Assembly (NCBI GenBank): GCA_965215615.1
Contig: OZ244068.1
Location: 1,648,223-1,712,222 of the forward strand
Direction: 5' to 3'
DNA from: Vicinamibacteria bacterium
Lineage (GTDB): Bacteria; Acidobacteriota; Vicinamibacteria; Marinacidobacterales; Marinacidobacteraceae
DNA length: 64,000 nucleotides
Shown here: one piece after another, positions 1 to 16,177 of the stretch
Numbering within the stretch: the first letter of the stretch is position 1
Layout of the letters: every line of letters begins with the position of its first letter
The notes under the pieces: model-generated
What the model was told of the DNA's origin: nothing
The model's database searches: none
Seen by the model: only the letters and a program-made list of their open reading frames with translations
Position numbers and translations under genes: made by a program

Positions 1-294
1 AAATTGGATGCGGATTTCTTCTCGGGCCGCTGGTCCCGGTTGACCGATCGCCAACGGGATCTACTGTCCGTGGTTGCTCACCTCGACCACCAGGACGGCG
101 AATTCAGTGTCCGGGACATCGTTCGGGCATCCGCCGAATTGCCGAGGCCGTTCAGCGCGAGCCACATCAACCAGATGCTCCTGAGTCTCGCCGGACAGGG
201 TCTGGTGTTCAAGAACCGTCACGGCAGCTACTCGTTCGCGGTTCCCCTGCTCGATGCTTTCATCCGAAGACGGACAGGCCCGGAGGGGGCATAG
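1..294 (+). CDS. C-terminal fragment of an ATPase with a winged-helix domain (partial at window start)
   Basis: Open frame from base 1; the tail '...LTDRQRDLLSVVAHL...FSVRDI...GLVFKNRHGSYSFAVPLL' resembles C-terminal wHTH domains of AAA/ORC-like ATPases; no start codon inside the window. Confidence 0.35.
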   Translation, partial: KLDADFFSGRWSRLTDRQRDLLSVVAHLDHQDGEFSVRDIVRASAELPRPFSASHINQMLLSLAGQGLVFKNRHGSYSFAVPLLDAFIRRRTGPEGA

Positions 295-1797
295 TCAGCG
301 GGCCCAGTCGAAGCTCCGCTCCACCGCGCGCCGCCAGTCGGCGAGCCGGGCTTCGCGGTCGCTTTCCGGCATCTTCGGCTCGAAACGGGCATCTTCGGCG
401 AGCGCCGCGCCGAGATCGGCTCCGGACTCCCAGAACCCCACCGCGAGTCCGGCCGCCACCGCCGCGCCGAGCGCCGTCGTCTCGCGCTGGAGCGGCCGGG
501 CCACCGGAACCCCGAGGATGTCTGCCTGGAATCCCAGCAGCAGGTCGGAGACGGTCATCCCGCCGTCCACCCGGAGCTCGGAAATGGTCTGGCCGGAGTC
601 CTGACGCATGGCCTCGAGCACCTCGGCGACCTGGAAGGCGGTGGACTCGAGGGCGGCCCGCGCGATGTGCCGCCGGTCGGCGAAGCGGGTGAGCCCGCAG
701 ATCGTCCCCCGGGCATCCGGCCGCCACCACGGCGCGAAAAGGCCGGAAAACGCGGGAACGATGTACACGCCGCCGCTATCCGGAACCTCGAGCGCGAGCC
801 GCTCGACACCGGCGGCGGTTTCCGCGAAGCCGAGCTGGTCACGGAGCCACTGGACGAGCGAACCCGCCACCGCGACCGCTCCTTCGAGCGCGTATTCGAC
901 CCCGTTCCGGTCCGCGAAGGCCACGGTGGTGAGCATCCCGGATCGGGAGGGAACCGGCCGGGTTCCGGTGTGGAGCAACAGGAACGCCCCGGTCCCGTAG
1001 GTGCACTTCGCCTCTCCCGGCCGCCGGCATTGCTGGCCGAGGAGCGCTGCCTGCTGGTCTCCGATCATTCCGGTGATCGGGATTTCCGCTCCGAACGGGC
1101 CGTCCTTGCGGGTGTGGCCGAAGGCTTCCGGGTGCGACGACGGAAGGATCTCCGGCAGCATCCGCTCGGGAACCTCGAGCGCCGCCAGGAGTTCGGGATC
1201 CCACCGGCAGCCATCGAGCGCCATCATCTGGGTCCGGCTCGCGTTGGTCGCATCGGTGCGGTGGTCGCGGTCTCCGGTGAGACAGGCGAGGATCCACGAA
1301 TCCACCGTGCCGAAGACGGCGCGCCCTTCCCCCGCCCGTTCGCGGAGTCCGGGCGTGTTGTCGAGCAGCCACCGCAGCTTCGGCCCCGAGAAATAGGTCG
1401 CGGGAGGAAGCCCGGTGCGCTTGCGAAGCCGCTCCTCGCCGACCGTTTCGCCGAACTGCTCGGCGAGCCCCCGGGTCCTCGTGTCCTGCCAGACGATCGC
1501 CGGGGCGAGGGGCGCTCCGGTTTCGGGGTCCCAGACCACGGCCGTCTCGCGCTGGTTGGTGATCCCGACCGCCGCCACGTCCTTCCCGGCGAGCCCGGAC
1601 TTCCCGAGTGCCCGCGAAACGGTCTCGAAAACCCGGTCGCGGATCTCGGCCGGATCGTGCTCGACGAGGCCGCGGTCCGGCGTGAACTGGCGGTGTTCGC
1701 GCTGGGCAGAGCCCACCACCCGTCCCTTTCGATCGAAGAGCAGGCAGCGGCTGCTGGTGGTCCCCTGGTCCACCGCCGCGATGACTCGTTCTGACAC
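295..1797 (-). CDS. glpK: glycerol kinase (FGGY family)
   Basis: Protein has 'VIAAVDQGTTSSRCLLFD', 'GTGAFLL' and full-length similarity to GlpK; likely GTG start at 1795-1797 preceded by GGAGG; the ATG 66 nt further upstream would add a non-conserved extension. Confidence 0.9.
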   Translation of the reverse strand: MSERVIAAVDQGTTSSRCLLFDRKGRVVGSAQREHRQFTPDRGLVEHDPAEIRDRVFETVSRALGKSGLAGKDVAAVGITNQRETAVVWDPETGAPLAPAIVWQDTRTRGLAEQFGETVGEERLRKRTGLPPATYFSGPKLRWLLDNTPGLRERAGEGRAVFGTVDSWILACLTGDRDHRTDATNASRTQMMALDGCRWDPELLAALEVPERMLPEILPSSHPEAFGHTRKDGPFGAEIPITGMIGDQQAALLGQQCRRPGEAKCTYGTGAFLLLHTGTRPVPSRSGMLTTVAFADRNGVEYALEGAVAVAGSLVQWLRDQLGFAETAAGVERLALEVPDSGGVYIVPAFSGLFAPWWRPDARGTICGLTRFADRRHIARAALESTAFQVAEVLEAMRQDSGQTISELRVDGGMTVSDLLLGFQADILGVPVARPLQRETTALGAAVAAGLAVGFWESGADLGAALAEDARFEPKMPESDREARLADWRRAVERSFDWAR

Positions 1798-1885
1798 CTT
1801 CGCCTCCTCGCGCCGAAACGCCTTCCGGTATTCTCTCCGCCCGCCAACCGATTTCCCCCCCAAGGAAATTTCTCAAGAAGATTTC

Positions 1886-3229
1886 ATGAAGATCGGCCGC
1901 CTTCTCGCTGCGCCCCTGCTGTTCGCCTCGCTCGCCTCGCTTGCCCCCGCCCAGCCGAGCGTCCTCCCGATGCGGGAGCGGGCAGCGCTCGTGGATCGCT
2001 GGCTCGACATCCGCTTCGAGACGGTGCTGCCGGAAATCATGCGGCGCGAAGGGGTGGATCTGTGGATCGTGGCGGCCCGCGAATACAACGAGGATCCGGT
2101 GATCCGGACCATGCTCCCCTACACCTGGCTCGCCGCCCGGCGGCGCACGGTGCTGATGTTCCATGACCTTGGAATGGAAGAAGGAGTCGAGCGGCTCGCG
2201 GTGGCCCGCTACGACATCGGCGGCATCCCGCGGGCCTGGGATCCCGATTCGGAGCCCGATCAATGGGGCCGGGTCGCGGAGCTCATCCGCGAACGGGATC
2301 CGGAGGTGATCGGGATCAACTGGTCCGAGGACTTCGGGCTCGCCGACGGTTTCACCGCGAGCGAGAACGCGGCGTTCCGGGAAGCGCTCGGGCCAGAACT
2401 CGCGGGCCGGGTGAAGCCGGTGGAGCGGCTCGCCATCGCCTGGCTCGAAACCCGGACCCCGGAGGAGATGGAGGTCTATCCGGGAGTGGTGCGGCTTGCC
2501 CGCTGGATCCTCTCGCGGGGGCTCTCCGGCGAAGTCATCCAGCCGGGGGCAACCACCACCGACGATGTCTCGTGGTGGTACCGGGAGAAAATCCGGGAAC
2601 TCAAGCTCCAGGCGTGGTTCCAGCCGGGCGTCTCGGTGCAGCGGCACGAAACCCAGGCCGTCGAGCTACGCGAGGACTACTCGGGGCGTCCGCCGCCGAA
2701 CACCATCCTCCCCGGTGACCTGATCCACGTGGACCTCGGGATCACCTACCTGCGGCTCAACACCGACACCCAGATGAATGCCTACGTGCTGCGGCCCGGC
2801 GAGACCGACGCTCCGGAAGGACTCCGCGAAGCGTTCGCAATCGGAAACCGGCTCCAGGACATCCTCACCGACGAGTTCGTCAGCGGCCGCACCGGGAACG
2901 AGATTCTCGGGGCGGCGCTCGAACAGGCGAGCCTCGAAGGAATCCGGGCTTCCATCTACACCCACCCGATCGGCTACCACGGCCACGGAGCCGGCCCCAC
3001 CATCGGCCTCTGGGATCGCCAGGAAGGCGTCCCCGGCAAGGGCGACTACCCGCTCTTCCCGATGACCGCCCACGCGATCGAGTTGAACGCGCGGGTTCCG
3101 GTCCCCGAGTGGGACGACCAGGAAGTCCGGATCGCTCTCGAAGAGGATGCCTTCTTCGACGGCGAAAGCACCTGGTACATCGATCCCCGCGCCGAACGGT
3201 TGCTGCTCATCCCCCGCCAGGAGAACTAG
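1886..3229 (+). CDS. secreted M24-family metallopeptidase (Xaa-Pro aminopeptidase/prolidase-like)
   Basis: ATG at 1886 gives signal peptide MKIGRLLAAPLLFASLASLAPA; creatinase/prolidase N-domain; metal-ligand region 'HPIGYHGHGAGPTIGLWD'; the upstream part of the track ORF is a non-coding extension. Confidence 0.8.
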   Translation: MKIGRLLAAPLLFASLASLAPAQPSVLPMRERAALVDRWLDIRFETVLPEIMRREGVDLWIVAAREYNEDPVIRTMLPYTWLAARRRTVLMFHDLGMEEGVERLAVARYDIGGIPRAWDPDSEPDQWGRVAELIRERDPEVIGINWSEDFGLADGFTASENAAFREALGPELAGRVKPVERLAIAWLETRTPEEMEVYPGVVRLARWILSRGLSGEVIQPGATTTDDVSWWYREKIRELKLQAWFQPGVSVQRHETQAVELREDYSGRPPPNTILPGDLIHVDLGITYLRLNTDTQMNAYVLRPGETDAPEGLREAFAIGNRLQDILTDEFVSGRTGNEILGAALEQASLEGIRASIYTHPIGYHGHGAGPTIGLWDRQEGVPGKGDYPLFPMTAHAIELNARVPVPEWDDQEVRIALEEDAFFDGESTWYIDPRAERLLLIPRQEN

Positions 3230-3234
3230 AAACA

Positions 3235-5192
3235 TGAATCAGGCATTGTCCCTGTCAGAAGTCTTCGACAAGCGGCTTTTCCGCATCCCCGACTACCAGC
3301 GTGGATATTCCTGGCGAGAGAAGCAACTCGAACAGTTCTGGGACGACCTCGTCTCCATGGGGGACCGACGCCACTACGCCGGTGTCCTCACCGTCCGCGC
3401 CGTATCCGTTGACAGTCCCAAATCACAGGAACACTGGCTTTGCCACGATCACAGTTATCGGTGCTACCACGTCGTGGACGGCCAGCAGCGCCTGACCAGT
3501 ATCGTTCTGCTCGTCGCAGCGATCGTTCACCACTTCCGGCCTTACGCTGATGGAAGTGACCCCCAGGTTGTCGGCACTCTCATGACGAGCAATCTCGAAG
3601 ATACATTTCTCTATCGCATTCATCCTGAAGGCGACATGGAGACGAATATCGTCAACTATGCCGTAGATGGCTCTCTCTGTCAGGTTCTTCATTCCTGTCT
3701 TCGATCCACAAGAATTGACGCATCTATTCGTAATGAAGCATCCAATCTGTACACGCGAAATCTTGTCTTCGCCCGCGAATTTTTCATTTCGCGCCTGAAA
3801 GATCTCGTACAGCAACAGGGGCCCGATGCCATCGGCCTGTTTTATCATCGGTTGACTCAAAATCTGTTCTTCAACATGTACGAGATTGAGGATGAATTCG
3901 ATGTCCATATCTCGTTCGAGACGATGAACAATCGTGGGTTGTCGCTTTCGACTCTTGACCTGGTCAAGAATCGCTTGATGTATCTGACTAATCTGTTTCA
4001 CCCCGGGAAGGAGCAAACTGCGGCCCGGCACACACTCCTCACCCATGTCAAGGACAATTGGCAGAAAATCTACGACGAATTGGGACACCACCCCACACAG
4101 CAACTGAATGAGGATTCGTTTCTTCGCGACCATTGGATCGCATACTTCGGGAAATCAGGTAGCGAGAATGAATGCGCCCGCTTTCTGCTCGAGGAGCGAT
4201 TCACAAAAGCAGCCGTTCATGGCTCATCGCCATCGATCTCCCCGGGTGACATTCACGATTACGTAGTTGACCTCGGAACATCTGTACGTCACTGGGTCTC
4301 GACCCATTTCCCAGAAAAAGTCCACAACACTCCTCTGCGAGCGGAACTCGAAAGACTCCAGCGAATGGGTGTGGGCTCTTTGCGGCCCCTCGTGATGGAG
4401 ATCCTGGGTCATCGAGATGATCTGCTTGCCGGAGAGGCGATACGAACAGTGGAGCGCTTCCGCTTCCTTGCATTTGCGATGGCGGGTCGGCGATCCGACT
4501 ACGGAAAGGCAGAGTTCCATAGGTTGGCTCACGCAATTCACAGTGACCAGAAGGAGCTGCGGGATGCGATCGACCAGATCCAGGCATGGACAACCGAGAG
4601 TGCCGAAAGTGTTGATCTGTTGGCAAATCGCTTCGCAGGAATTCTGACCAAAAACAGCGGCCAACTGGATTACTACCAATGGTCTGGCCTCAAACATCTA
4701 CTCTACGAATACGAACGATTCCTGGCAAGAGAGGATGGACCGGAGAAGGTAACCTGGCAAAAAATCGTCACGAACAGCGAAACAACGATATCCATCGAAC
4801 ACATTGCGCCGCAGACACCCACCCCCTACTGGGAGCAAAAAATTCCAGACGAGTACGAGGCATGGGCACAACAGCTGGGCAACCTCGTTCTCTTGGCCAA
4901 ACCGATCAATTCGGCATTGCAGAATCGACCCTTTGAGGAAAAGAAGAACGCCACGTGGGACAAGAGCGGCAAGGTCGCCCGCGTGGGATACAGCACCGGG
5001 AGCTATTCCGAGCTGGAAGTTGCCAGAGAGACCGAATGGAATGCGGATTCGATCCGCAGGCGTGGGTTGCGAATTCTCGAGTTCATGGCCGAACACTGGT
5101 CCATTCCCTTCTCGGATGCCCACAAGCAGCAGCTCGTCTCTCCGACCCCGAAGCGGCAGGTCCCAATATCGGATCCACTCGATTTCGAGTAG
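3235..5192 (+). CDS. DUF262 (ParB/GmrSD N-terminal, DGQQR) plus DUF1524 (HNH-like) nuclease, GmrSD-like type IV restriction protein
   Basis: Motifs 'IPDYQRGYSWREKQLEQFWDDL', 'VVDGQQRLTS', C-terminal 'IEHIAPQ'; AGGAGA SD 10 nt before the ATG; gene GC ~48% against ~70% in flanks. Confidence 0.8.
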
Positions 5193-5248
5193 CAAACCGG
5201 CGGCGAGAGATCAAGCGATAACCCGCGGCGTTCCGAGCGCGAAATCCC

Positions 5249-6319
5249 ATGCGGCGCTCCGATTTCCTCGCCGGGGTCGGGCTCGCGGCCGGGGTATCCC
5301 TCCTCGCGACCTTCGGGGCCGACTGGATCGCCGAGTCGCTGCTCGGCCTCTCGGGAAACCCGATCAGTGCCGTCGTGCTGGCCATCGTTCTCGGCATGGC
5401 CATCTCGAATGGAACCGGCTGGGCCCGCTCCGGTGCTTCGGGGCTTCGGTTCTGCTCCACCACCATCCTCCGGCTCGGCATCGTGCTGCTCGGCTTTCGG
5501 CTCAGCCTGCTCGCCGCCGGCCGCTTCACCCTTGCGGCCCTTCCCTTCGTCCTTTTTGCGATCGCGGCGGGGATTTCCGTGGTGCGGCTTTTCGGGTCGC
5601 GCTTCGGACTCTCCCGAACCCTCGCCGGGCTGATCGCGATCGGGACCAGCATCTGCGGTGCCACCGCCATCGTCGCGACCGCTCCCCTGCTCCGCGCCCG
5701 CGATTCCGAAGTGGGTTATGCGGTCACCTGCGTCACCGTGTTCGGCATCGCCGCGATGTTCGGCTATCCGATCCTCGCACACGCGATCTTCCCCGCCGAA
5801 CCGCAGCTCGCCGGGCTCTTCCTCGGAGCCTCCATCCACGAAACTGCCCAGGTCGCCGGCGCGGGAGTGATGTACGAAACCCGATACGGCGCGCCGGAAG
5901 CGCTCGACGTGGCCACCGTCACCAAACTGGTCCGGAATCTATCCATGCTGGCGCTGATCCCGCTGGTGGGCATCCTGTTCGCCGGCAAACGGGGCGAGAA
6001 CTCTCCCTCCTGGCTGCGGATGATCCCGTGGTTCGTCGTCGGCTTCGCGGCCTGCTCGGCGCTCCGGACCCTCGGAGATCACCTGTTCCCCGGCGCTGCG
6101 GCGTGGGAGCAGATGGTCTCGTTCTTCCGTCACGCTGCCGAAACCTGCCTGCTGCTCGCGATGGCCGGAGTGGGCCTTCAGTCGAGCTTCGTCGGCCTCC
6201 GGCGCATCGGCTTCCGCCCCTTCGCCTTCGGACTTCTCACCGCCCTCGTGACAGGCGCGGTCAGCCTGAGCCTGATTACGGCGTTCGGAGAATCAACCCT
6301 CGCCTTCTTCGGCGACTGA
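5249..6319 (+). CDS. YeiH/UPF0324-family inner-membrane protein (putative sulfate exporter family)
   Basis: Polytopic membrane protein, glycine-rich helices, typical YeiH length and N-terminus. Confidence 0.7.
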   Translation: MRRSDFLAGVGLAAGVSLLATFGADWIAESLLGLSGNPISAVVLAIVLGMAISNGTGWARSGASGLRFCSTTILRLGIVLLGFRLSLLAAGRFTLAALPFVLFAIAAGISVVRLFGSRFGLSRTLAGLIAIGTSICGATAIVATAPLLRARDSEVGYAVTCVTVFGIAAMFGYPILAHAIFPAEPQLAGLFLGASIHETAQVAGAGVMYETRYGAPEALDVATVTKLVRNLSMLALIPLVGILFAGKRGENSPSWLRMIPWFVVGFAACSALRTLGDHLFPGAAAWEQMVSFFRHAAETCLLLAMAGVGLQSSFVGLRRIGFRPFAFGLLTALVTGAVSLSLITAFGESTLAFFGD

Positions 6320-6748
6320 CATCAGCGAACCTGTCTCCCATGGGTTGTGGAGTCCAATCCCCAACCCCTCGAAATCACCGACGTTGCGCGTCACCACCGT
6401 CAACCCGCCCAGGCGGGCGATCGCGGCGATCTGGCAGTCGATCGGATCCGGATGAAGGCCGCGGGCGCGCCGCATGGCCGCCATCTCTGCGTAAACACAG
6501 GCCGCTTCGCGATCAAAGGGCAGGACGCGGTCGCCGAAAGCTCTCCGTAGCATCCCCTCCATGCGGGAGAACAGCGCTTCGCGCCGATGTCCCACCGGCA
6601 GGATCGCGACAGCGTAGCGGAGCTCTGCCTCGCTCACAGCAGACAGGAAAAGTTCTTCAGGAACCTGGGCGGCGATCCATGATTCGACAGTGCGCGCCGG
6701 TTCCAGACGCATCAATTCGGACACCACGTTCGTGTCCAGCAGAAACAC
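6293..6748 (-). CDS. vapC: PIN-domain toxin VapC
   Basis: 'MFLLDTNVVSEL...' N-terminus with conserved D; ~150 aa; directly downstream of an RHH antitoxin gene. Confidence 0.8.
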   Translation of the reverse strand: MFLLDTNVVSELMRLEPARTVESWIAAQVPEELFLSAVSEAELRYAVAILPVGHRREALFSRMEGMLRRAFGDRVLPFDREAACVYAEMAAMRRARGLHPDPIDCQIAAIARLGGLTVVTRNVGDFEGLGIGLHNPWETGSLMSVAEEGEG

Positions 6749-6759
6749 GTGGCTCTCGA

Positions 6760-7008
6760 TCAGTCGAAGGAGGGTGGCTCGCGGGAGCCGCCCCGCGGCG
6801 GCAGCTCCAGTTCCACGCCATTCTCCGGGCCGAAGTACGACCGAATGATGCTCGCAAGGTCACGACCAGCCGGCTCCGGGGCCACTGCGCCACCGAGAAT
6901 CCGGCGGGCTTCCTCTTCCATGGATCGGCCGTTGACGGCGGCACGAACCCGCAAGCGGGCTTTCACTTCGTCGTCGAGTTTGCGGATCGTGATACTCGCC
7001 ACGGTCAT
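6760..7008 (-). CDS. vapB: RHH (FitA/StbC-like) antitoxin VapB
   Basis: 'MTVASITIRKLDDEVKARLRVRAAVNGRSMEEEARRIL'; ATG at 7008; 11-nt gap to vapC. Confidence 0.7.
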   Translation of the reverse strand: MTVASITIRKLDDEVKARLRVRAAVNGRSMEEEARRILGGAVAPEPAGRDLASIIRSYFGPENGVELELPPRGGSREPPSFD

Positions 7009-7052
7009 CCTCCTGTTTTGATGGCATCGCAATCCTTTCGATTGTAACGCCA

Positions 7053-7676
7053 TCAATCTTCGGCGATGGCCTCGGTGCCGAGCAACTCGCCGACGAGGCG
7101 GCGCGCCCGCTCTTCGGTCTCCGGGAGCGAGCCGGAAGTGTCCACCAGATCGTCCGCTGCCGCCATCTTGGCGGCCACCGGCATCTGCGCCGCAATCCGG
7201 GCCCGGGCTTCGGCCTCGGTGAGGGAAGAGCGGGCGAGCAGACGCTCGATCTGCTGCTCCGGCGGGCAGTGGGCCACCACCAACCGGTCGTAGGTTTTCG
7301 CGCTTCCGGTTTCGACCATGAGCGCCGCCTCCACCCCGGCCGCCGCCGCGCCTGCGGCCGACCGCTGCTCGAGGAACTCCTGAATCGCGCGGCGCACCTC
7401 CGGGTGCACGATCCGGTTCAGCCGCTCGCGGGCCGCGGGGTCCGAAAACACGATCCCTCCGAGCTTCGAACGATCCACGCCGCCGGTCGAATCCCGGACA
7501 TCTCCGAACTCGCGCCCGAACTCCTGGACGATCGCTTGGATCAGCTCGCCGCCCGGCGCGAGAAAGTCGTGGGTCAGCCGGTCGGCATCCAGCATCGGGA
7601 TGCCGGCGCGCTCGAAGACCCGGCGAACGACCGATTTCCCCGACGCGATCCCCCCGGTCAGGCCGATCCGAAGCAT
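7053..7676 (-). CDS. coaE: dephospho-CoA kinase
   Basis: 'IGLTGGIASGKS' P-loop and full-length CoaE similarity. Confidence 0.9.
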   Translation of the reverse strand: MLRIGLTGGIASGKSVVRRVFERAGIPMLDADRLTHDFLAPGGELIQAIVQEFGREFGDVRDSTGGVDRSKLGGIVFSDPAARERLNRIVHPEVRRAIQEFLEQRSAAGAAAAGVEAALMVETGSAKTYDRLVVAHCPPEQQIERLLARSSLTEAEARARIAAQMPVAAKMAAADDLVDTSGSLPETEERARRLVGELLGTEAIAED

Positions 7677-7689
7677 CCGCGCTTTCCGG

Positions 7690-8616
7690 TCAGTCGCCGG
7701 CCTTTCGCCGCGCCTCGGCGAGCTCGATGGTGTTCTTCAGGAGCATGGCGATGGTCAGCGGGCCGACTCCCCCGGGGACCGGGGTGTAGGCAGAGGAAAG
7801 CTCGCGCATGAAGTGAGGATGCGCGTCGCCGACCAGCGCGTTCCCGTTCCGGCCAAACCGCTCGAGCCGCTTCGGTTCGGAACGGAAGAAATCGGCGGCG
7901 AGGGCCGGATCGGTGATGCGGTTCATCCCGACATCCACCACCACCGCTCCCGACCGGATGCTTTCCTCCCCTGCGAGCCCGGTCCGGCCGGTCGCAAGCA
8001 GCAGGATGTCGGCCTCCCGGCAGGCCGCCGGAAGATCGGCCGTCCGGGAATGACAGATGGTGACCGTCGCGTGAGCGTGGAGCAGCATCAAGGCGAGCGG
8101 CTTGCCGACGATGTCGCTCCGACCGACCACCACCGCGCGCTTTCCCTTGAGGTCCACGCCTTCCCGGTGGAACATTTCGAGAATGCCCGCCGGAGTGCAG
8201 GGGCGCGGCCCCGGCTGGTTCGCGACCAGTCGTCCCACGTTTTCCGGGTGGAAGCCGTCCACATCCTTGTCCGGCCGGATGCGGGCGAGGAAACGACCGG
8301 CATCGAGTCCCTCCGGCAGCGGCAACTGGAGCAGGATCCCGTCCACCGCGTCGTCCTCGTTCAGCTCGTCCAGCAGATCGCCGAGTTCCCCGGCAGTGGT
8401 TTCCGCCGGCCGCCGGTGGATCGTGGAGTGGAATCCGGCTTCGGTCGAGGCCCGGCCCTTGCCCCGCACATAGATCGCGGAAGCCGGGTCGTCCCCGACC
8501 AGGACCACCGCGAGTCCCGGAGGCCGGCCCTCCCGCGCGAAATCCCGCGCCGACTCCGCCGCTTCGGCCCGGATCGCGGCGGCGATCCGTTTTCCGTCCA
8601 GAATGCGTCCCGGCAT
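7690..8616 (-). CDS. folD: bifunctional methylenetetrahydrofolate dehydrogenase/cyclohydrolase
   Basis: 308-aa protein 'MPGRILDGKRIAAAIRAE...YVRGK...PGGVGPLTIAML'; ATG (cat) at 8614-8616; the longer track ORF is an upstream extension. Confidence 0.9.
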   Translation of the reverse strand: MPGRILDGKRIAAAIRAEAAESARDFAREGRPPGLAVVLVGDDPASAIYVRGKGRASTEAGFHSTIHRRPAETTAGELGDLLDELNEDDAVDGILLQLPLPEGLDAGRFLARIRPDKDVDGFHPENVGRLVANQPGPRPCTPAGILEMFHREGVDLKGKRAVVVGRSDIVGKPLALMLLHAHATVTICHSRTADLPAACREADILLLATGRTGLAGEESIRSGAVVVDVGMNRITDPALAADFFRSEPKRLERFGRNGNALVGDAHPHFMRELSSAYTPVPGGVGPLTIAMLLKNTIELAEARRKAGD

Positions 8617-8621
8617 CTCCC

Positions 8622-9329
8622 TCACCCCTTCCCGGTTTCTTCCCGGGCAGCGCGCAGCAGAACCCGCGCCGATTCCCGAGCCCTCGCGGGGCTCGTCATA
8701 TCGATCGCCGAAACGACCGCAAACGCGTCGGCTCCCGACGCGATCACTTCGGCGGCCCGCCTTCCCCGGATACCGCCGATCGCAACCAGCGACCGCCCTC
8801 CGGTTTCGCGGGTCGCGGCGCGCACTCCTTCGAGACCGACCACCGGCTCCGGGTTCGCCTTCGACCCGGTGGGAAAGACCGGGCCGATCGCCAGATAGTC
8901 GCAAGGTGCGGGGCGCGCTTTTTCCAGCTCGGCGAGGGAATGGGTGGACAAACCGAGAACCCGGCGGTCGCCGAGGAACTGCCGGGCGCGGCCGGCAGAG
9001 AGATCGTCCTGGCCGATGTGCGCGCCACCCGCGCCGGAAAGCAGCGCGATATCCACCCGGTCGTTCACGAGGAGCGTGACCCCTGCTCCGGCGGTGCCCC
9101 GGACACCCGCGCGAACCCAGTGCAGGAACTCCCTCGCGGACATGTTCTTGGCCCGGAGCTGCGCGACCCGGATCGAGAGATCGGCAAGGGCCCGGAACAA
9201 GGGGCCGGGGTCGGGGTCGCCGTGGACTTCCGCATCGAGAATCGGGTAGAGCGGCGCGCCGGGCCACCTTCCGGATCCGGCGCGATCACCCCATCCGCTC
9301 GAGGATTCCGGTGTCGAATCCGCCAGCAA
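8622..9329 (-). CDS. thiE: thiamine-phosphate synthase
   Basis: 'LYPILD', 'AHIGQDDL', 'AIGPVFPTGSK' motifs; start uncertain (ATG at 9329 overlaps accC 3' end by 44 nt). Confidence 0.75.
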   Translation of the reverse strand: MLADSTPESSSGWGDRAGSGRWPGAPLYPILDAEVHGDPDPGPLFRALADLSIRVAQLRAKNMSAREFLHWVRAGVRGTAGAGVTLLVNDRVDIALLSGAGGAHIGQDDLSAGRARQFLGDRRVLGLSTHSLAELEKARPAPCDYLAIGPVFPTGSKANPEPVVGLEGVRAATRETGGRSLVAIGGIRGRRAAEVIASGADAFAVVSAIDMTSPARARESARVLLRAAREETGKG

Positions 9330-10620
9330 CGAATTCCTCGTTCTCCAGCACCCGGAGGTGGAAAGGAAGGGTGGTGTGGACTCCCTCGATCACCATCTCA
9401 CGGAGCGCCCGGCGCATGCGCGCCACCGCCATCTCGCGATTCTCTCCGTGCGCGATGACCTTGGCCAGCAGCGAGTCGTACCACGGAGGCACGTCGGCAC
9501 CGGCGTGGAATGCGGTGTCCACCCGGATGCCCGGCCCGCCGGGGCTGTGGAATTCCCGGATGCGCCCCGGTGAAGGGGCGAAGGTCTCCGGGTGTTCGGC
9601 GTTGATGCGGCACTCGACGGCCGCCCCCGAAGGAGCGAACTCCTCGCCGGCGAACGAGAGAGGCTCTCCGGCGGCTACCAGGATCTGCTCCCGCACCAGA
9701 TCCTTTCCGGTCACCATCTCGGTCACCGGATGCTCGACCTGGATCCGGACGTTCATCTCGCTGAAGTAGAAGTTGCCTTCGGGATCCATCAGGAACTCGA
9801 CCGTCCCGGCGTTCCGGTAGGAGACCGCCTCGGCTGCCCGGACGGCCGCCTCGCCCAGCTCTTCGCGGAGCTTCGCGGAAATCCCGGGGGCCGGCGATTC
9901 CTCCACGAGCTTCTGGTGGCGACGCTGGACCGAACAATCCCGCTCGCCGAGATGGGTGGTGTTTCCGTGAGCATCGGCGAACACCTGCACCTCGACGTGG
10001 CGGACGCTCTGAAGGAAGCGCTCGAGGTAGAGAGCGCCGTCTCCGAAAGCCGCCTGCGCCTCGCTCGAAGCGGACTGGAAAGCAGCTTCGAGCTCCGGGA
10101 GCTCCCGGACGATCCGCATGCCGCGCCCACCACCGCCGAACGATGCCTTGAGCAACACCGGAAAGCCCACGTCCCGGGCGATGCGGGCTGCTTCCTCGGG
10201 GCTCGCAATGGGTTCCTCCACGCCGGGAAGCACCGGAACCCCGGCATCGCGCATGACCCGGCGGGCGAGCGCCTTGTCCCCCATGGTGCGAATCGCCTCC
10301 GGCCCCGGCCCGATGAAGGTCACCCGGCAGCTTTCGCACACTTCGGCGAGCGCCGCGCTCTCGGCCAGAAAGCCGTAGCCCGGATGGATGGCATCGGCAC
10401 CCGCGATCTCGGCAGCGGTGAGGATGCGGGGGACATCCAGATAGCTTTCCTTCGGTGCCGGAGGGCCGATGCAGATCGCCTCGTCGGCGAGGCGCGTCGG
10501 CAGGGAACCCGAATCGGCCGACGAATGAACGACCACCGTCTGGATCCCGAGGTCACGGCAGGCCGCGAGAATCCGGACCGCGATCTCTCCCCGGTTCGCG
10601 ATCAGAACCTTGTGGAACAT
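9286..10620 (-). CDS. accC: acetyl-CoA carboxylase biotin carboxylase subunit
   Basis: 'MFHKVLIANRGEIAVRI...' ATP-grasp biotin carboxylase, full length 444 aa. Confidence 0.95.
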   Translation of the reverse strand: MFHKVLIANRGEIAVRILAACRDLGIQTVVVHSSADSGSLPTRLADEAICIGPPAPKESYLDVPRILTAAEIAGADAIHPGYGFLAESAALAEVCESCRVTFIGPGPEAIRTMGDKALARRVMRDAGVPVLPGVEEPIASPEEAARIARDVGFPVLLKASFGGGGRGMRIVRELPELEAAFQSASSEAQAAFGDGALYLERFLQSVRHVEVQVFADAHGNTTHLGERDCSVQRRHQKLVEESPAPGISAKLREELGEAAVRAAEAVSYRNAGTVEFLMDPEGNFYFSEMNVRIQVEHPVTEMVTGKDLVREQILVAAGEPLSFAGEEFAPSGAAVECRINAEHPETFAPSPGRIREFHSPGGPGIRVDTAFHAGADVPPWYDSLLAKVIAHGENREMAVARMRRALREMVIEGVHTTLPFHLRVLENEEFVAGGFDTGILERMG

Positions 10621-10651
10621 CGGCTGGCGAACGTGGCCCTTCCGGGGCGAA

Positions 10652-11119
10652 TCAGCCCGGACGGATCGTGAGAAGGCGATCTCCGAACTGGACCGGCGAT
10701 CCGTCCTCGCAGGCGATCCCGACCACCTCGCCCGCGCATTCGGCGACGATGTTGTTCATCAGCTTCATGGCTTCGATGATGCAGAGCACCTGGCCTTCCT
10801 CGACCCGGTCTCCGGGCGCGACGAACGGGTCCGCATCGGGGCGGGGGCGCCGGTAGAAGGTGCCCACCATCGGTGCCTCGACGACGACGAGCCCGGCATC
10901 CTGATCCGATTCCGGAGGAGCGGGGGCGGGATCTGCGGGACTTCCCGAAGCGAGCGGAGGCGCGGATGCGGGGCCGAACACCGCCGCGGGAGCGCTCCGG
11001 GAGACCCGGACCCGGGCATCCCCGAGGCGGATTTCCACCTCGTGGAAACCACTCTCGCCAAGGCGCTCGACCGCTTCGAGCAGTTCGGGGAGAGTGGGAC
11101 CGGAAGGAGACGGGGACAC
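10652..11119 (-). CDS. accB: biotin carboxyl carrier protein
   Basis: Biotinyl motif 'EAMKLMN'; proline/alanine linker; immediately upstream of accC. Confidence 0.9.
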   Translation of the reverse strand: MSPSPSGPTLPELLEAVERLGESGFHEVEIRLGDARVRVSRSAPAAVFGPASAPPLASGSPADPAPAPPESDQDAGLVVVEAPMVGTFYRRPRPDADPFVAPGDRVEEGQVLCIIEAMKLMNNIVAECAGEVVGIACEDGSPVQFGDRLLTIRPG

Positions 11120-11170
11120 GGCAGCGCGGGGAACGGTACCACAGACAAACCGCCTCTTCCCGAACGGAAA

Positions 11171-12928
11171 TCAGCCCTCCCGAACCTCTTCTCCGGCCGG
11201 ATTCCGAAGGCGCGGCGTGAGAAAAATGATCAGCTCTTCCTCCCGCTCACGCGACCCGGAAGACCGGAAGAGCCTCCCCAGCAGCGGGATGCGATGGAGG
11301 AAGGGAACGCGCTGTTGGTCTTCCGATTCCTGGGTAACGAACACGCCCCCCAGAACCGTCGTCTGCCCGTCCACGACCCGGACCCGGGTGGTCGCCTGCT
11401 GGGTCAGGATGCTCGGGATTCCCCCGACCGCCTGCCCGAAGTCGAGGGTGTCGTTGTTGACCGCGAGATCCAGCAGGATGGTCCCGTCGGGGCCGATCTC
11501 GGGCGTGACGGTGAGCTCGAGCACCGCATCCTGGAATTGGACGGTCACCGTGTTGTTGGCCACCACCTGGACCGGGAAGGTGACTCCCTGCTTGATGGTC
11601 GCCGGACGGGCGTTCTGGGCCACGATGCGCGGCGCCGAAAGGATCCGGAGATCGCCACGCCGCTCGGCGGCGGTGAGCGCCAGATCGATGCGATCCACTC
11701 CGGGAATGGCACCGAGCGCGATCCCGAGCGCCCCGGTCGGCCTCCCGACAGCCGGGAGGTTCACCGCGTATCCCGGCCTGCTTCCGTCCGGTGCCGCAGG
11801 CGGGAGCAGGCCCCCTTCCGCTCCTTCGGTGAACCCGGACGTTCCGGAGGCTCCGAGCGCGCCACCGTCCACCCGGGCTTCTCCCCCGGAGCCGCCGCGG
11901 ATCACTTCCCCGCCCCACTGGATTCCGAGGCTGCGGCTCTCGGACCGGGTGGTCAGAACGATCCGCGCCTCGATTTCGACCCCCGGGACCGCCACGTCGA
12001 GAGCCGAGATCATGTCTTCCAGCGCTTCCATCCTCCCTTCCACTTCGCGAATCAGAAGAACACCGGTCCGGGCATCCGCGATCAGGGAGCCCCGCTCGCT
12101 CAGCCGTTCGGCGAGCAGATCCCGGACCTGCTCCGGAGAGACGTGCGCGAGCCGTCTCACCCGGCTCAGGAGGGCACCGGCCAACTCCTGCTCTTCCTCC
12201 TGCCGGGCGCGCTCGATTTCTTCGGCGGAAAGCTCGGAGAGCGTCCCGACCCGCAGCACGGTTCCCTCGAGAGTCCAGCCGAGCCCGCGCGAGCGAAGGA
12301 TCACATCGAGAGCCTGATCCCAGGGAGTTTCGGTGAGACGAAGGCTGATCCGCCCGGCGACCGTGGGCTGGAGCACGAAGTCGAGCCCGCTCACCTCCCC
12401 GAGCACCCGGAGCACGTCCCGGATGTCGGCATCCCGAAAATCGAGCGTGACCCGCTCCGCCTCCAGCTCTTCCATCTCCTGCTGCTCGATTTCCTTCTCT
12501 TCCTCCGGGGCCGGTGATTCTCCCGGCGGTTCCTCCAGCGGTTCGGGCGGGGCCGGAACATCCCCGGATGCCGAGGCGCAAGCGATTTCGAGACCGCCCG
12601 AGGCTTCGTCGAAATCACATCGGACCCCGGAGCTCAGTTCGAGCACGAGTTCGGCCTGCCCGTCCCCGGCGACGCGGATCCGCACGCTCCGGATCTCGGC
12701 AGTCCCGACTTCCCAGACACCCCGGACCGCGCCGATGTCCACCCGGCCGAGCCCGAGCGTCATCCGCTCGCTTCCCCGCAGGATGCTCACCGGCGACAAC
12801 GGGCCATCGGCGAGCAACCGCACCCGGGTGATTTCCAGATCGCGGCGCAACTCCACTGCGGTGACCGGAAGAAGCGGAGCTTCGGTCTGTGCTCCGAACG
12901 AACAGGCAAAAAGGACCGCGAGAATCAT
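11171..12928 (-). CDS. pilQ: type IV pilus secretin PilQ
   Basis: Signal peptide; AMIN-like N-domain; C-terminal secretin domain '...VPFLHRIPLLGRLF...LIIFLTPRL'; 4-nt overlap with the upstream pil gene. Confidence 0.85.
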   Translation of the reverse strand: MILAVLFACSFGAQTEAPLLPVTAVELRRDLEITRVRLLADGPLSPVSILRGSERMTLGLGRVDIGAVRGVWEVGTAEIRSVRIRVAGDGQAELVLELSSGVRCDFDEASGGLEIACASASGDVPAPPEPLEEPPGESPAPEEEKEIEQQEMEELEAERVTLDFRDADIRDVLRVLGEVSGLDFVLQPTVAGRISLRLTETPWDQALDVILRSRGLGWTLEGTVLRVGTLSELSAEEIERARQEEEQELAGALLSRVRRLAHVSPEQVRDLLAERLSERGSLIADARTGVLLIREVEGRMEALEDMISALDVAVPGVEIEARIVLTTRSESRSLGIQWGGEVIRGGSGGEARVDGGALGASGTSGFTEGAEGGLLPPAAPDGSRPGYAVNLPAVGRPTGALGIALGAIPGVDRIDLALTAAERRGDLRILSAPRIVAQNARPATIKQGVTFPVQVVANNTVTVQFQDAVLELTVTPEIGPDGTILLDLAVNNDTLDFGQAVGGIPSILTQQATTRVRVVDGQTTVLGGVFVTQESEDQQRVPFLHRIPLLGRLFRSSGSREREEELIIFLTPRLRNPAGEEVREG

Positions 12929-13323
12929 GGCGGAGCGCCCTCTTCGGCGGGGAGCGCGAGGGGAATCTGCAGCTCGTTTTCGGGGTCCGACCGAAGCACG
13001 AAAAAGACCCCTTCCCGATCGACCCCGGAAACGATGCCGTCCATCAGGGAATCACCAGGGCGTGCGACGAACCCGTCCCCACGGGGGGATTCGAGCACCG
13101 CCAGCCCGTCCCTCGGGATATCCCCGCGGACCAGCACTCCCCGGACACGGATCTCCGAAATCAGCCAGCCGGCGAGACCCGCCGGGCGCTCGGCATCGAT
13201 CGGAGCCGGCGGCGGCCGGAAGGGATCCCGTCCTTCCTCCCGTCTTTCCTGGGCGATTCCCGGAGAAGCCATGAGCAAGGCTGCTCCGGGGATCGAGGTG
13301 ACGATCCACCGGAAAACCATCAC
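12925..13323 (-). CDS. pilP: pilus assembly lipoprotein PilP-like
   Basis: Small signal-peptide protein in the pilO-pilQ position, translationally coupled (4-nt overlaps). Confidence 0.55.
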   Translation of the reverse strand: MMVFRWIVTSIPGAALLMASPGIAQERREEGRDPFRPPPAPIDAERPAGLAGWLISEIRVRGVLVRGDIPRDGLAVLESPRGDGFVARPGDSLMDGIVSGVDREGVFFVLRSDPENELQIPLALPAEEGAPP

Positions 13324-13901
13324 CGCCCCTCGTCAGCAGGTTCGGGCATAACCGATTCCGGGCCGATCACCACCGCGACGAATCGCCCGGAAAGCGCTCC
13401 GCCGGGCTCCGCGGGGGCCGAGAGCTCGAAGTCATCGATCACGATCGCCTTGCCGAACCCGGCGACTCTCTCGAAGAACCGAACGAAATCGAAGTAGTTG
13501 CCCTCCGCTTCCACCGCGGCCGAACGAGCCGTGAAGGGCCCCATCGAGAACGCCGGTTCCGGGGCGAACCGGCGCATGCGGAGGCCTTCCTCGGTGGCGG
13601 CGGCCGCCAGCGAATCCAGCAGATCCTGCGCTTGTTGGCCGGCGCTCAGAACCCCGCGAAGGATCTCGACCTGACGTGCCTGGCGGTCGAGGTCGGCGCG
13701 CGCCACTTCGGCCACCTTCCGATCTCCGTCGCCCCCGCTCGCTTCCGCCGAGCGCAGGTCGTCACCAAGCCGGGCCACCCGGCTCTCTTCCGCGAGAAGC
13801 GCCGCCTGCTTCGCGGGTCGCACGAAAAGGCGGAAGCCGAACTGAATCCCGAGCGCGATGACCAGAAAAGGGAGGATCCACCGCAGGGTGGACGCGGTCA
13901 T
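13320..13901 (-). CDS. pilO: type IV pilus assembly protein PilO
   Basis: 193-aa protein with one N-terminal TM helix then a coiled coil; ATG at 13899-13901; the track ORF is a 5' extension. Confidence 0.65.
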   Translation of the reverse strand: MTASTLRWILPFLVIALGIQFGFRLFVRPAKQAALLAEESRVARLGDDLRSAEASGGDGDRKVAEVARADLDRQARQVEILRGVLSAGQQAQDLLDSLAAAATEEGLRMRRFAPEPAFSMGPFTARSAAVEAEGNYFDFVRFFERVAGFGKAIVIDDFELSAPAEPGGALSGRFVAVVIGPESVMPEPADEGR

Positions 13902-14578
13902 GACCCCTCCCCGTCGCCGCCGAGCGCCGCGATCAGGGCGACGAGCGGTTCGGGTTCGCGCGAGTTGAACCGGAGCGCACCCGCGAGCGAGAAGCGGTGA
14001 TCCCCCAACATCGTGGCCCGAACGTCTCCTCCCCCTCCGCGTTCGACGTACTGGAGAGTCAACGTCCGGACCCGATCCATCCCGGCGAACCGCTCCGCGG
14101 CGCTCCGGGCCGCACCGGTGGACCCGGTCCGTCCGGTAATCACGAGCTCGTCTCCCCGGCGGCTCAGGTTCTCGAGAACGACCCCGTCTCCGATTTCGAG
14201 CGCGAGCTCCCGGAGCAGATCGGGGAGCACGTAGCGCTCCTCGTCCCAGCGCTCGAGACGGCCGGACACGATGTGCAGCCGTTCGAGATGTCTTCGATCC
14301 TCCGCAATCTGGCTGGCGAGTCCCTCGAGATCGGCGATCCGCGTCTCGATCTGGCCGGCGACGGCGGATTCGGCCCGATGGCGGGTGTCGAGGCGGCGCG
14401 CGTCGGTGATCGCGACCAGGGTGGAGAGCGCGACGAGCCCGGTGCCAGCGAGAAGCGGCAACGCCGCGCCCCGGACCCTCCATGGACGGGCGGACTTCTG
14501 AAGGAGGCCTTCTTCCGGAAGCAGGTTCAGGCCGCGCCGGGGGCGAGCGATGGCAGACGGGCGGGTTTCGCGTTTCAT
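13898..14578 (-). CDS. pilN: type IV pilus assembly protein PilN
   Basis: 'MKRETRPSAIARPRRGLNLLPEE' PilN-type N-terminus with TM helix; ATG at 14576-14578; overlaps pilM stop by 4 nt. Confidence 0.65.
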   Translation of the reverse strand: MKRETRPSAIARPRRGLNLLPEEGLLQKSARPWRVRGAALPLLAGTGLVALSTLVAITDARRLDTRHRAESAVAGQIETRIADLEGLASQIAEDRRHLERLHIVSGRLERWDEERYVLPDLLRELALEIGDGVVLENLSRRGDELVITGRTGSTGAARSAAERFAGMDRVRTLTLQYVERGGGGDVRATMLGDHRFSLAGALRFNSREPEPLVALIAALGGDGEGS

Positions 14579-15540
14579 GACGAGTCCTCTAGATGGTTCT
14601 TGGCGAGTCCGGCCGCAAATGCGAGCGCCGGATCCCGACGTTCGGAATCGAAAAAGCCGATCGGATCGAGAACGGCTGGCTCTCCACGGGCAAGCGGCCG
14701 GAGCACTTCGTGGATTTCCTTCTGCCCCGCCCCGCCGCCACTCAGACGCACGGAACACGGCGGAGCGAGTCCGGCCTCGGCCAGCGCTTCCGCGAGCGCA
14801 GCAGCGACGCGCTTCCCGAGCGGGGATTCGGAGAAAGCCTCCTCGGAGCCGGTGCCCACGCCCCCACCCGGAGCCTGGACGCTCGCCGCCAGATCGGCCC
14901 AGGGCACCGCATCCCCGCCCGGAGACGGCGATACGAAGCGGAATACGTGGACCGCCGCGTGGGAAGCGCCCACTTCGACGATCGAGATCGGTTGCTCCCC
15001 GACCGCCCGGGAGTCGCCGAGCCGGTTCTCGAGCTCCCAGGCGGCGAGCAGGCCGTACGGTTCGATCTCCACCCGTCGGGGCGCGAGACCGGCTCGCGCG
15101 ACCGCCCGTCCGTGGCTCAGAACCAGATCACGGCGCGCCGCGCCAAAAACGACGCACCTGCCGCCCTCGCCGTTCCACGCCCGACCCCGCTCGAAATCGA
15201 ACAGCAAATCCTGCATGTGAAACGGGATGTGCCGGGCCGCTTCGGCCTCGACCGCCTGCCGCAAGGAGCCTTCCTCCCCGGCGGAGCCTTCCGGCAGGAC
15301 GAGACGCTTGACCAGGTACGCCCTGCCGCCGACTCCCACCGAAGCCGTCCGGCTCCGGACTCCCAACCTGCCGACGAGGCGCTCCAGGGCATCGCCGGCG
15401 GCTTCCCCATCGAGTACCGCGCCTTCCCGCACCACCCCCGAAGGAAGCGGCTCGCTCCCGGCAGCAACCAGGCGGATTTCGGTCCGCTCCCGGGCGAGCG
15501 CCACCAGCTTCACCGAGGACGCACCGAAGTCCACGCCCAC
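14575..15540 (-). CDS. pilM: type IV pilus assembly ATPase-like protein PilM (actin-like)
   Basis: 'GVDFGASSVKLVAL' PilM/FtsA-like N-terminus; start uncertain (GTG at 15538-15540 just below the conserved 80-nt element, or ATG at 15618 inside it). Confidence 0.75.
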   Translation of the reverse strand: MGVDFGASSVKLVALARERTEIRLVAAGSEPLPSGVVREGAVLDGEAAGDALERLVGRLGVRSRTASVGVGGRAYLVKRLVLPEGSAGEEGSLRQAVEAEAARHIPFHMQDLLFDFERGRAWNGEGGRCVVFGAARRDLVLSHGRAVARAGLAPRRVEIEPYGLLAAWELENRLGDSRAVGEQPISIVEVGASHAAVHVFRFVSPSPGGDAVPWADLAASVQAPGGGVGTGSEEAFSESPLGKRVAAALAEALAEAGLAPPCSVRLSGGGAGQKEIHEVLRPLARGEPAVLDPIGFFDSERRDPALAFAAGLAKNHLEDSS

Positions 15541-15562
15541 CCCGAACTCGGGGCGGGACCAA

Positions 15563-15641: not shown

Positions 15642-15660
15642 TTCTACCCCGCCCGCGCCC

Positions 15661-16148: not shown

Positions 16149-16177
16149 TTGACCGTCGGGAGAGCCACGCCTATACT
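16149..16177 (+). promoter_or_regulatory. sigma70-type promoter candidate for rplM-rpsI
   Basis: TTGACC (16149-16154), 17-nt spacer, TATACT (16172-16177), ~100 nt upstream of the rplM ATG. Confidence 0.45.

Follow-up and report, generated by a model that had tools for sequence, protein, structure and literature searches.

HEC-06 (Hma-embedded candidate 06) is a validated single-gene system resembling GmrSD which joins a DUF262 domain with a DGQQR motif, a helical linker and a DUF1524 domain in one protein, and in which the Q79A/R80A and E471A/H472A substitutions abolish defence (Payne et al., bioRxiv 10.1101/2024.01.29.577857). DndI, the ORF5 product of Salmonella Cerro 87 (PDB 9JFL), belongs to a dndBCDE-dndI-dndFGH cluster, and phosphorothioate regulates it; its R87, equivalent to the arginine of DGQQR, is essential, as judged from R87A, and N541A loses both nuclease activity and defence (PMC11662687). 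SspE (PDB 6JIV, 7DRS and 7DRI) is a phosphorothioate-dependent nicking enzyme of ~770 aa that is coupled to sspABCD, whereas GmrSD and BrxU (PDB 7P9K and 7P9M) act alone on phage DNA, with glucosyl-hmC, hmC or 5mC as targets. RloF-type DUF262 genes, a name taken from the record of Streptococcus phage Javan575, include copies carried as prophage cargo in Firmicutes.

Analysis of a 64-kb window (the whole stretch of DNA studied) from a Vicinamibacteria genome confirmed, from the sequence and the ORF list, a real 652-aa ORF of this superfamily among housekeeping genes (Table 1). The earlier note had recognized the ORF but started it at 3235, one base off, the ATG being 3234–3236. Alignment with 24 homologues placed residue 1 at this codon rather than at the upstream in-frame ATG at 3147. 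The proposed architecture of a DUF262 domain with DGQQR and a DUF1524 tail held, with 110.9 bits for GmrSD_N (PF03235; Pfam gathering cut-off 33.2) and 67.7 bits for GmrSD_C (PF07510; cut-off 23); no NCBIfam model matched the protein. Across a family alignment of 25 sequences (the nuclease protein plus the 24 homologues), the positions essential to HEC-06 (Q79, R80, E471 and H472) or to DndI (R87 and N541, the latter aligned with N559) were all present and invariant. The DUF1524 catalytic residues, the absence of which would, according to the earlier note, have spoken against its reading, are all in place (E522, H523, N550 and N559). Most members of the family have an acidic insertion of ~45 residues, which this protein lacks.

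Table 1. Coordinates of the features at the nuclease gene locus, numbered from the first base of the window
Feature	Position	Strand	Basis
M24-family peptidase, host gene, upstream neighbour	1886–3229	+	Pfam; synteny of relatives ends at stop codon
AGGAGA, Shine-Dalgarno-like sequence	3219–3224	+	Read in sequence; 9 nt 5' of ATG
GmrSD-superfamily (HEC-06-like) NTPase-nuclease gene, 652 aa, GC 53.4%	3234–5192	+	Pfam, PADLOC, composition, fold
DUF262/ParB-like NTPase domain, residues 8–249	3255–3980	+	Pfam PF03235, 1.1e-31
Segment missing from sister genome L087, ~1.82 kb	3337–5155	+	blastn of L087 against window; junction sequences
DGQQR, D82–R86, NTP-hydrolysis motif	3477–3491	+	Invariant in 25-member family alignment
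DUF1524 His-Me finger nuclease domain, residues 477–615	4662–5078	+	Pfam PF07510, 1.3e-18
E522-H523 in IEHIAPQ nuclease motif	4797–4802	+	Invariant in family alignment; corresponds to HEC-06 EHICP
G549-N550 ... N559, His-Me finger	4878–4910	+	Invariant in family alignment
yeiH-family transporter (PF03601), host composition (GC3 0.84)	5249–6319	+	Pfam, NCBIfam; kept in L087
vapC, PIN toxin	6293–6748	-	Pfam PIN, 7.5e-14; NCBIfam VapC below cut-off
vapB, FitA-like RHH antitoxin	6760–7008	-	Pfam, 1.5e-19

PADLOC analysis revealed that the best match was HEC-06 (PDLC04157; 6e-52, 175 bits), with residues 4–623 aligned to positions 11–556 of the 558-position model. The runners-up were Orf5 (135 bits, 6e-40 to 1e-35), SspE (67 bits, 2e-19) and the type IV model mREase_IV (40 bits, 3e-11), the last matching within the N-terminal domain only (residues 4–249). 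Orf5 in PADLOC is presumably the DndI of Salmonella Cerro 87, encoded by ORF5 of its dnd cluster. The likeness to HEC-06, which here takes the form of a profile match and residue conservation, extends to the C-terminal EH(I)xP nuclease motif and to the residues essential for HEC-06 function. The two differ in length (models of ~560 positions vs 652 aa) and in setting, the Hma or type I RM embedding being replaced here by a position behind a peptidase gene.

DndI was the closest solved structure both by sequence (3e-8) and by fold, and it shares DGQQR, EH and the essential asparagine with the nuclease protein, although the two are 16% identical and no dnd genes were found in the window. The AlphaFold model (mean pLDDT 76.7) was compared with the PDB using Foldseek, and only DndI (3.5e-13, a whole-length alignment), BrxU (2e-3) and, from SspE, the C-terminal domain (1e-2) stood ahead of noise; TM-scores were modest (0.25–0.49), as expected for flexible multi-domain proteins. 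SspE shares the two-domain architecture, and the DUF1524 domain aligns with the nuclease regions of both SspE and DndI (for SspE, C-terminal nuclease region 1.5e-5, DUF1524 domain structure 2.2e-5), but no ssp genes lie in the window. BrxU gave no sequence match in the PDB search at a cut-off of 0.01, and the likeness to GmrSD/BrxU consists of superfamily, domain order and the fold match to BrxU. The earlier assignment to a GmrSD/BrxU-type enzyme directed against modified phage DNA therefore stands for the superfamily architecture and not for the target, since classical type IV enzymes match less well than HEC-06, DndI/Orf5 and SspE, and targeting of glucosyl-hmC, hmC or 5mC cannot be read from that match. 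The protein may recognize modified bases, as GmrSD and BrxU do, or a different feature of DNA, and stand-alone action against phage DNA serves as a working analogy. Prophage copies of the RloF type were 34–35% identical over 99% of the length (3e-114); they differ from the present gene in that it is chromosomal and has no mobile-element genes nearby.

Base composition set the gene apart from its surroundings. No other 1959-bp stretch of the 64 kb was as low in GC as the ORF (GC1/2/3 of 0.60/0.38/0.62), which lay ~4 sd below the average of such stretches (0.669, sd 0.033), and the fall in GC began at ~3200 and ended at ~5200, matching the extent of the ORF. Neighbouring genes were far richer in GC (M24, 67.2%; yeiH, 67.6%; glpK, 70.7%; coaE, 70.2%), and GC3 was 0.84–0.86 for all four. 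A drop to ~48% had been described; the drop is real, but that figure is too low as a mean, GC of 44–48% being reached only at 3600–4000 and 4600–4800 within the ORF. The gene is compositionally foreign.

The nearest homologue of the protein was 38% identical, placing it on a long branch, and the family has a patchy distribution that takes in Proteobacteria, Cyanobacteria, Planctomycetes and ANME archaea. Plasmids of Acinetobacter and Picosynechococcus carry members of it, as do prophages of Streptococcus suis. Four homologue genes were each lower in GC than their own flanks, and the four loci had no common neighbour. Relatives were compared with the window by filtered tblastn, which replaced a raw tblastx swamped by high-GC noise. 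In 80 related loci spanning several phyla, the nuclease gene did not follow the M24 gene, and alignment revealed that homology with relatives breaks off at the M24 stop codon. Together with the composition and the 38% nearest homologue, the scattered family and this absence identify the gene as foreign. Orthologues rich in GC at the same position in all relatives, which the earlier note had set against acquisition, were not what emerged; the gene is absent at the site in all more distant relatives, and the orthologues found are low in GC. The empty site that it had suggested between the peptidase gene and yeiH was not encountered either: the nearest relative carries a deletion scar, further relatives have different genes after M24, and the 80 loci also lack yeiH and vapBC, so that none is a true empty site. 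Relatives of yeiH (72–75% identity), tried as a junction test, had the order amidohydrolase-yeiH-TonB receptor and were uninformative for the junction. Flanking direct or inverted repeats did not exceed chance, and the window gave no match when scanned for tRNA genes and Rfam families; hence there is no tRNA-type integration site. Proteins identical to the GmrSD and YeiH proteins were sought in a contig index, where neither is on record, and a metagenome scan with the nuclease protein returned only two distant relatives (24–26% identity) and missed the L090 population.

Two metagenomic contigs, L090 and L091 (93–94% nucleotide identity; population in JGI 3300009875 and SRR10406112), carry orthologues at the same site with ~52% GC. 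Over the N-terminal 260 codons, where the orthologous contigs end, dN/dS was 0.16, compared with 0.17 for the M24 gene, and the gene is under purifying selection over this part. Measured against the L090 orthologue, synonymous divergence was 2.4 times as large as in the M24 gene. The sister genome L087, which is 97% identical to the window and collinear with it over positions 1–16365, has lost the interior of the nuclease ORF by a deletion whose junction lies at a CAG microhomology; a frameshifted stub remains, where gene calling gives a 54-aa product that still matches GmrSD_N weakly. Because selection in the orthologues coincides with loss in this strain, the gene appears functional but dispensable, and the loss indicates that it is not strongly required.

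The M24 gene ends with TAG at 3227–3229, which leaves a spacer of 4 nt before the nuclease-gene ATG. Translational coupling had been proposed with a spacer of 5 nt; the presence of a Shine-Dalgarno sequence and the close position of the ATG 3' of the M24 stop were upheld, and the spacer was corrected. This AGGAGA overlaps the final M24 codons (Q-E-N), and alignment of the M24 ends shows that relatives have part of it at the 3' end of their own M24 genes. Searches for promoters and terminators at the nuclease gene locus, including between the M24 and nuclease genes, gave nothing above chance. The nuclease gene is probably transcribed together with M24, and its own Shine-Dalgarno sequence would serve for translation.

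Downstream, a vapBC module 3' of yeiH had been reported, and its domains match; the PIN toxin gene immediately follows that of the small RHH antitoxin on the same strand, which is the VapBC arrangement. Its GC3 is mildly atypical (0.72–0.75), it is absent beside yeiH in more distant relatives, and it is a separate accessory module. The two FitA-PIN modules of the window were considered as paralogues and rejected (E 0.035). The earlier view of 3.2–7.0 kb as one defence insertion did not survive the comparison, since yeiH has host composition and L087 retains yeiH, vapBC and everything downstream; the variable unit is accordingly the nuclease ORF alone.

We consider it likely that the product is a GmrSD-superfamily defence enzyme that works alone and stands nearest the HEC-06 branch, and that the ancestor of a small marine clade of Vicinamibacteria (Acidobacteriota) acquired its gene horizontally. 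In that ancestor, insertion would have placed the gene immediately 3' of the M24 peptidase gene. The N-terminal DUF262/ParB-like domain is predicted to bind and hydrolyse NTP through DGQQR, acting as sensor and switch, and the long helical linker may mediate oligomerization, solved relatives being dimers. The C-terminal His-Me finger (E522-H523, N550 and N559) would then nick or cut invading DNA, and a partner gene would not be needed. Both the enzymatic activity and the anti-phage role are here predicted from sequence.

An effector of the DndI/SspE type would instead sense a mark on host DNA, such as phosphorothioate or similar, made elsewhere in the genome, and attack unmarked DNA. The solved-structure matches to DndI and SspE and the PADLOC scores of Orf5 and SspE point in this direction, and the tyrosines with which DndI (Y25) and SspE (Y30) sense phosphorothioate have their counterpart in Y21 of the PDYQR motif. 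This tyrosine, however, is near-invariant across the aligned family as well as in SspE and DndI, and is non-discriminating. HEC-06 models score higher (175 vs 135 bits), and whereas SspE and DndI adjoin their own modification operons, no dnd, ssp, BREX, Hma or type I RM protein was found among the 45 ORFs of the window (E ≤ 1e-5), nor any dnd/ssp modification gene beside the four homologues examined. We regard such an effector as unlikely. The dependence of DndI, the best solved-structure match, on host phosphorothioation nevertheless counts against a stand-alone enzyme.

A passenger gene, decaying or selfish, that serves no present defence function in its host would fit the deletion in the sister strain, where the locus is otherwise unchanged, the long branch without the acidic insertion, and the raised synonymous divergence from L090. 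The loss and the missing insertion also count against the stand-alone defence enzyme, and the protein may, given its long branch, have altered or lost its activity. Against a passenger stand an intact 652-codon ORF with all catalytic residues, a dN/dS equal to that of a housekeeping neighbour, and a Shine-Dalgarno sequence and 4-nt spacing kept in L090 and L091, which make this reading very unlikely. Most improbable is a two-gene operon in which, for example, the M24 peptidase activates or regulates the nuclease: the shared strand, the 4-nt gap and the lack of a terminator or promoter between the genes would agree with it, but M24 is conserved without the nuclease gene in the 80 loci, family members at the four other loci have no peptidase neighbour, and the signal-peptide-like N-terminus of M24 suggests that the peptidase is exported.

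Returning to the stand-alone defence enzyme, its site of insertion invites a speculative reading that we hold to be doubtful, namely that the 3' flank of glpK-M24 is an integrase-less hotspot of defence-gene exchange in marine, host-associated Vicinamibacteria, and that the long-branch protein may recognize a DNA feature different from that of all characterized members. In related genomes the glpK-M24 area carries the GmrSD/HEC-06-like gene in the source genome, L090 and L091, a PDC-M57B plus an IrrE/M78 protein in L035, a D12 methyltransferase in L088, and an MmeI-like type IIG enzyme adjoining glpK in L089.

The gain and loss of a defence gene seen here is of an ordinary, well-documented type, and knowledge of how GmrSD-superfamily enzymes work is unchanged by it. 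The locus adds a divergent, apparently functional HEC-06/DndI-like branch member to the GmrSD superfamily from Acidobacteriota, a phylum whose defence systems are almost unstudied, and provides a clean natural example of defence-gene turnover, the gene having been gained, kept under purifying selection in certain populations and deleted at a microhomology in the 97%-identical sister.

The GmrSD-like gene, a candidate defence gene with DUF262 and DUF1524 domains, encodes a 652-aa protein on the + strand (window 3234–5192). Its ATG follows the TAG stop codon of the M24 peptidase gene (3227–3229) by four bases (AAAC), placing the start one base before the 3235 proposed in the earlier note; the Shine-Dalgarno sequence AGGAGA claimed there is present at 3219–3224, within the final M24 codons and 9 nt 5' of the ATG. 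A second in-frame ATG occurs upstream at 3147, and alignment with 24 homologues showed that family residue 1 corresponds to ATG 3234. The ORF has a GC content of 53.4% and a GC3 of 0.62, compared to 67–71% and 0.82–0.86 for the flanking glpK, M24, yeiH, coaE, and accC, and it is the GC minimum of all 1959-bp stretches in the 64 kb, approximately 4 sd under the mean of 0.669. The previously noted GC of ~48% applies to its central stretches only. GC steps in 100-bp windows coincide with the ORF ends, from 0.63 to 0.55 near 3200 and from 0.59 to 0.70 near 5200.

Pfam analysis identified GmrSD_N (PF03235) at residues 8–249 (1.1e-31) and GmrSD_C (PF07510) at residues 477–615 (1.3e-18). Among the PADLOC defence models, HEC-06 ranked first (6e-52, residues 4–623 against model positions 11–556 of 558), followed by Orf5 (6e-40) and SspE (2e-19), while the type IV model mREase_IV matched the N-terminal domain only (3e-11). 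A preprint describes HEC-06 as a single-gene GmrSD-like system protecting E. coli against phages, with defence lost in the Q79A/R80A (DGQQR) and E471A/H472A (EHICP) mutants (bioRxiv 10.1101/2024.01.29.577857). In the 24-homologue alignment, PDxQRG, DGQQR (82–86), FETMNNRG, EH (522–523), GN (549–550), N559, and Q563...F567..K570 were invariant. An AlphaFold model built from the homologue alignment (mean pLDDT 76.7) had only three meaningful PDB fold matches: DndI (9JFL, 3.5e-13, whole length), BrxU (7P9M, 2e-3), and the SspE C-terminal domain (7DRI, 1e-2). DndI, a phosphorothioate-regulated ATPase and nickase, is the current name of ORF5 of Salmonella Cerro 87 (PMC11662687), a gene of the dnd cluster (PMC2978375); the shared name and the top PDB match make it most likely that the PADLOC Orf5 model represents this protein. 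HMMER alignment paired R86 and N559 with DndI R87 and N541, both of which are essential (PMC11662687). The domains, PADLOC models, invariant motifs, and fold matches therefore place the protein solidly in the GmrSD superfamily, as initially proposed, but its nearest branches are HEC-06 and DndI-like proteins rather than the classical GmrSD/BrxU type IV enzymes to which it had been assigned.

A search of 5.8 billion proteins, excluding the protein itself, returned a closest homologue with 38% identity (1e-138). The family is tight (~700 aa, mean column identity 66%) and occurs in Burkholderiales, Cyanobacteria, Planctomycetes, Desulfobulbaceae, and ANME archaea. A member is present on 180 plasmid records, among them those of large Acinetobacter baumannii plasmids and one Picosynechococcus plasmid; Streptococcus suis prophages also carry members, with one annotated as RloF. 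Four homologue loci had no neighbour in common, the neighbours being transposases, AAA ATPases, HipA, an Mrr-methyltransferase pair, or plasmid RepB/ParB, and homologue GC was below that of its own flanks in all four.

Relatives of the M24 gene indicate that the host is a Vicinamibacteria / 'Ca. Marinacidobacterium' acidobacterium. The glpK and M24 synteny was kept in the ten closest GTDB representatives, with nucleotide homology ending at the M24 stop codon, and none of 80 M24 loci contained the GmrSD-like gene, yeiH, or vapBC. More distant relatives carry, 3' of M24, a GntP permease, a GFO/IDH/MocA oxidoreductase, a 3-keto-disaccharide hydrolase, and, further on, a PD40 protein and the rplM block. 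In the closest GTDB relative (L035, M24 91% identical; region 11295–13749), a 385-aa gene of lower GC (58%) matching the defence candidate PDC-M57B (1e-83) begins 17 nt past M24, followed by an IrrE/M78-domain protein with RmrA/CapP-like matches and then metG. Of two further relatives, L088 has a D12-class type II methyltransferase ~2 kb downstream of M24 (13502–14380) and L089 an MmeI-like type IIG restriction-methylase adjoining glpK (3044–5833). The glpK-M24 neighbourhood is therefore variable, with recurrent defence-type cargo. Between glpK and M24, L088 has two genes, one encoding an amidohydrolase and one encoding a 187-aa protein (7594–9758), L089 likewise has an amidohydrolase, and other syntenic relatives have a 1.5–2 kb gap. 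The two genes are nearly adjacent in the window (22 nt apart, 1863–1886) and in the sister genome, implying that the intervening sequence was deleted in this clade.

Clustering at 90% identity grouped the window YeiH with a second protein, encoded on a 2.9-Mb circular contig of that sister genome. The locus (L087) is collinear with window 1–16365 at ~97% nucleotide identity, and its genes follow one another as in the window (glpK, M24, yeiH, vapC, vapB, coaE, folD, thiE, accC, accB). The sole exception is window 3337–5155, which is missing. No empty site between M24 and yeiH was found; L087 instead has a deletion scar, in which 103 nt from the start of the ORF and 37 nt from its end remain. 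A CAG microhomology marks their junction, and the product is a frameshifted 54-aa stub with a weak GmrSD_N match. Two metagenomic contigs 93–94% identical to the window, L090 (JGI 3300009875) and L091 (SRR10406112), contain glpK, M24, the same 4-nt gap, and an orthologue, covered up to the contig end for 260 and 91 codons, respectively. The L090 fragment (GC 51.9%) retains DGQQR and FETMNNRG and differs from the window gene by 32 non-synonymous and 50 synonymous changes over 260 codons, giving a dN/dS of 0.16, compared to 0.17 for the adjacent M24. Its dS was 0.35 (window 3234–4013 vs. L090 4006–4785), 2.4 times the M24 value of 0.15, for which relaxed constraint on codon usage, amelioration, or a recombination history of its own are possible causes. 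At the sequence level, the scar, the orthologues, and the dN/dS indicate that the common ancestor of the window, L087, L090, and L091 populations already had the gene, that purifying selection has maintained it in two or more lineages, and that its deletion in the sister strain is secondary. The refuting case named in the earlier note, a high-GC orthologue in every relative, was not found, and the proposed foreign origin stands.

The foreign segment is essentially this ORF alone, and the earlier view of 3.2–7.0 kb as a single defence insertion was not upheld: yeiH has host composition (GC3 0.84), and yeiH and the mildly atypical vapBC (GC3 0.72–0.75) are both kept in L087 without the ORF interior. 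In relatives with 72–74% identical YeiH, yeiH has an amidohydrolase gene on one side and a TonB-dependent receptor gene on the other, and vapBC is absent; thus, vapBC is a separate accessory module. No flanking repeats, promoters, terminators, tRNAs, or Rfam RNAs marking the ORF were found. The convergent yeiH and vapC overlap by 27 nt at their 3' ends (6293–6319). One relative (YeiH 74% identical) has IS1595 and IS110 transposases, together with small unknown ORFs, in a 7-kb insert directly upstream of yeiH (L082 931–7185), so this flank is also insertion-prone.

Other features of the window, including a second defence-type cluster at 55203–63196, are listed below.

Features of the window outside the GmrSD-like locus
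Feature	Position	Strand	Remark
Phd/YefM antitoxin	55203–55478	+	second defence-type cluster
PIN toxin, partner of Phd/YefM	55475–55867	+	second defence-type cluster
501-aa ORF, low GC, GC3 0.60	56174–57679	-	second defence-type cluster
PIN toxin, partner of FitA-like RHH	57741–58169	-	second defence-type cluster
FitA-like RHH	58169–58495	-	second defence-type cluster
Helicase-nuclease, 1563 aa	58505–63196	-	second defence-type cluster; PADLOC PDC-S37 + Hhe
Direct repeat, 261 nt, 91% identity	54891–55151 and 55186–55446
Giant ORF, 4267 aa, GC3 0.91	34409–47212	+	probably a repeat-rich surface protein
Inverted repeat, ~200 nt, 77% identity	15563–15752 and 47112–47293

The PDC-S37 model matched the entire helicase-nuclease (1809 bits), Hhe matched it at 5e-234, and the DUF4011 and MTES_1575 Pfam matches in the window probably belong to it. 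The helicase-nuclease is also encoded in the sister genome, whereas the 501-aa protein, for which neither Pfam nor PADLOC gave a family, clusters with no other protein at 90% identity and is the most novel item of the window. Through the direct repeat, the beginning of the Phd/YefM antitoxin region is present twice, at the left edge of this second low-GC island. The giant ORF contains many internal repeats (~290 nt to 2.8 kb, 67–87% identity). One copy of the inverted repeat, which matched no Rfam family, lies 5' of a conserved block from 16220 that L087 gene calls suggest begins with rplM; the other lies just past the giant ORF.

By analogy with HEC-06, for which such action has been shown, the best-supported reading of the GmrSD-like protein is a His-Me nuclease that is gated by its NTPase, works on its own, and would attack invading DNA. 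Its main competitor is the reading as a DndI/SspE-type effector dependent on host phosphorothioation, which the structural similarity and the Orf5 and SspE model matches favour; however, no dnd or ssp genes occurred among the 45 window ORFs or beside the homologues, and the HEC-06 model scored above both. The 'sensing' Tyr does not discriminate, because it is near-invariant in the aligned family and common to SspE and DndI. A decaying passenger is unlikely given the dN/dS of 0.16 and the intact motifs, and functional pairing with the M24 peptidase is likewise unlikely because the 80 M24 loci lack the GmrSD-like gene.

The GmrSD-like gene, as a predicted stand-alone nuclease, thus reads as an ordinary defence gene, a new and divergent member of a known superfamily, which comes from an under-studied phylum and for which the evidence of gain and loss is clear.
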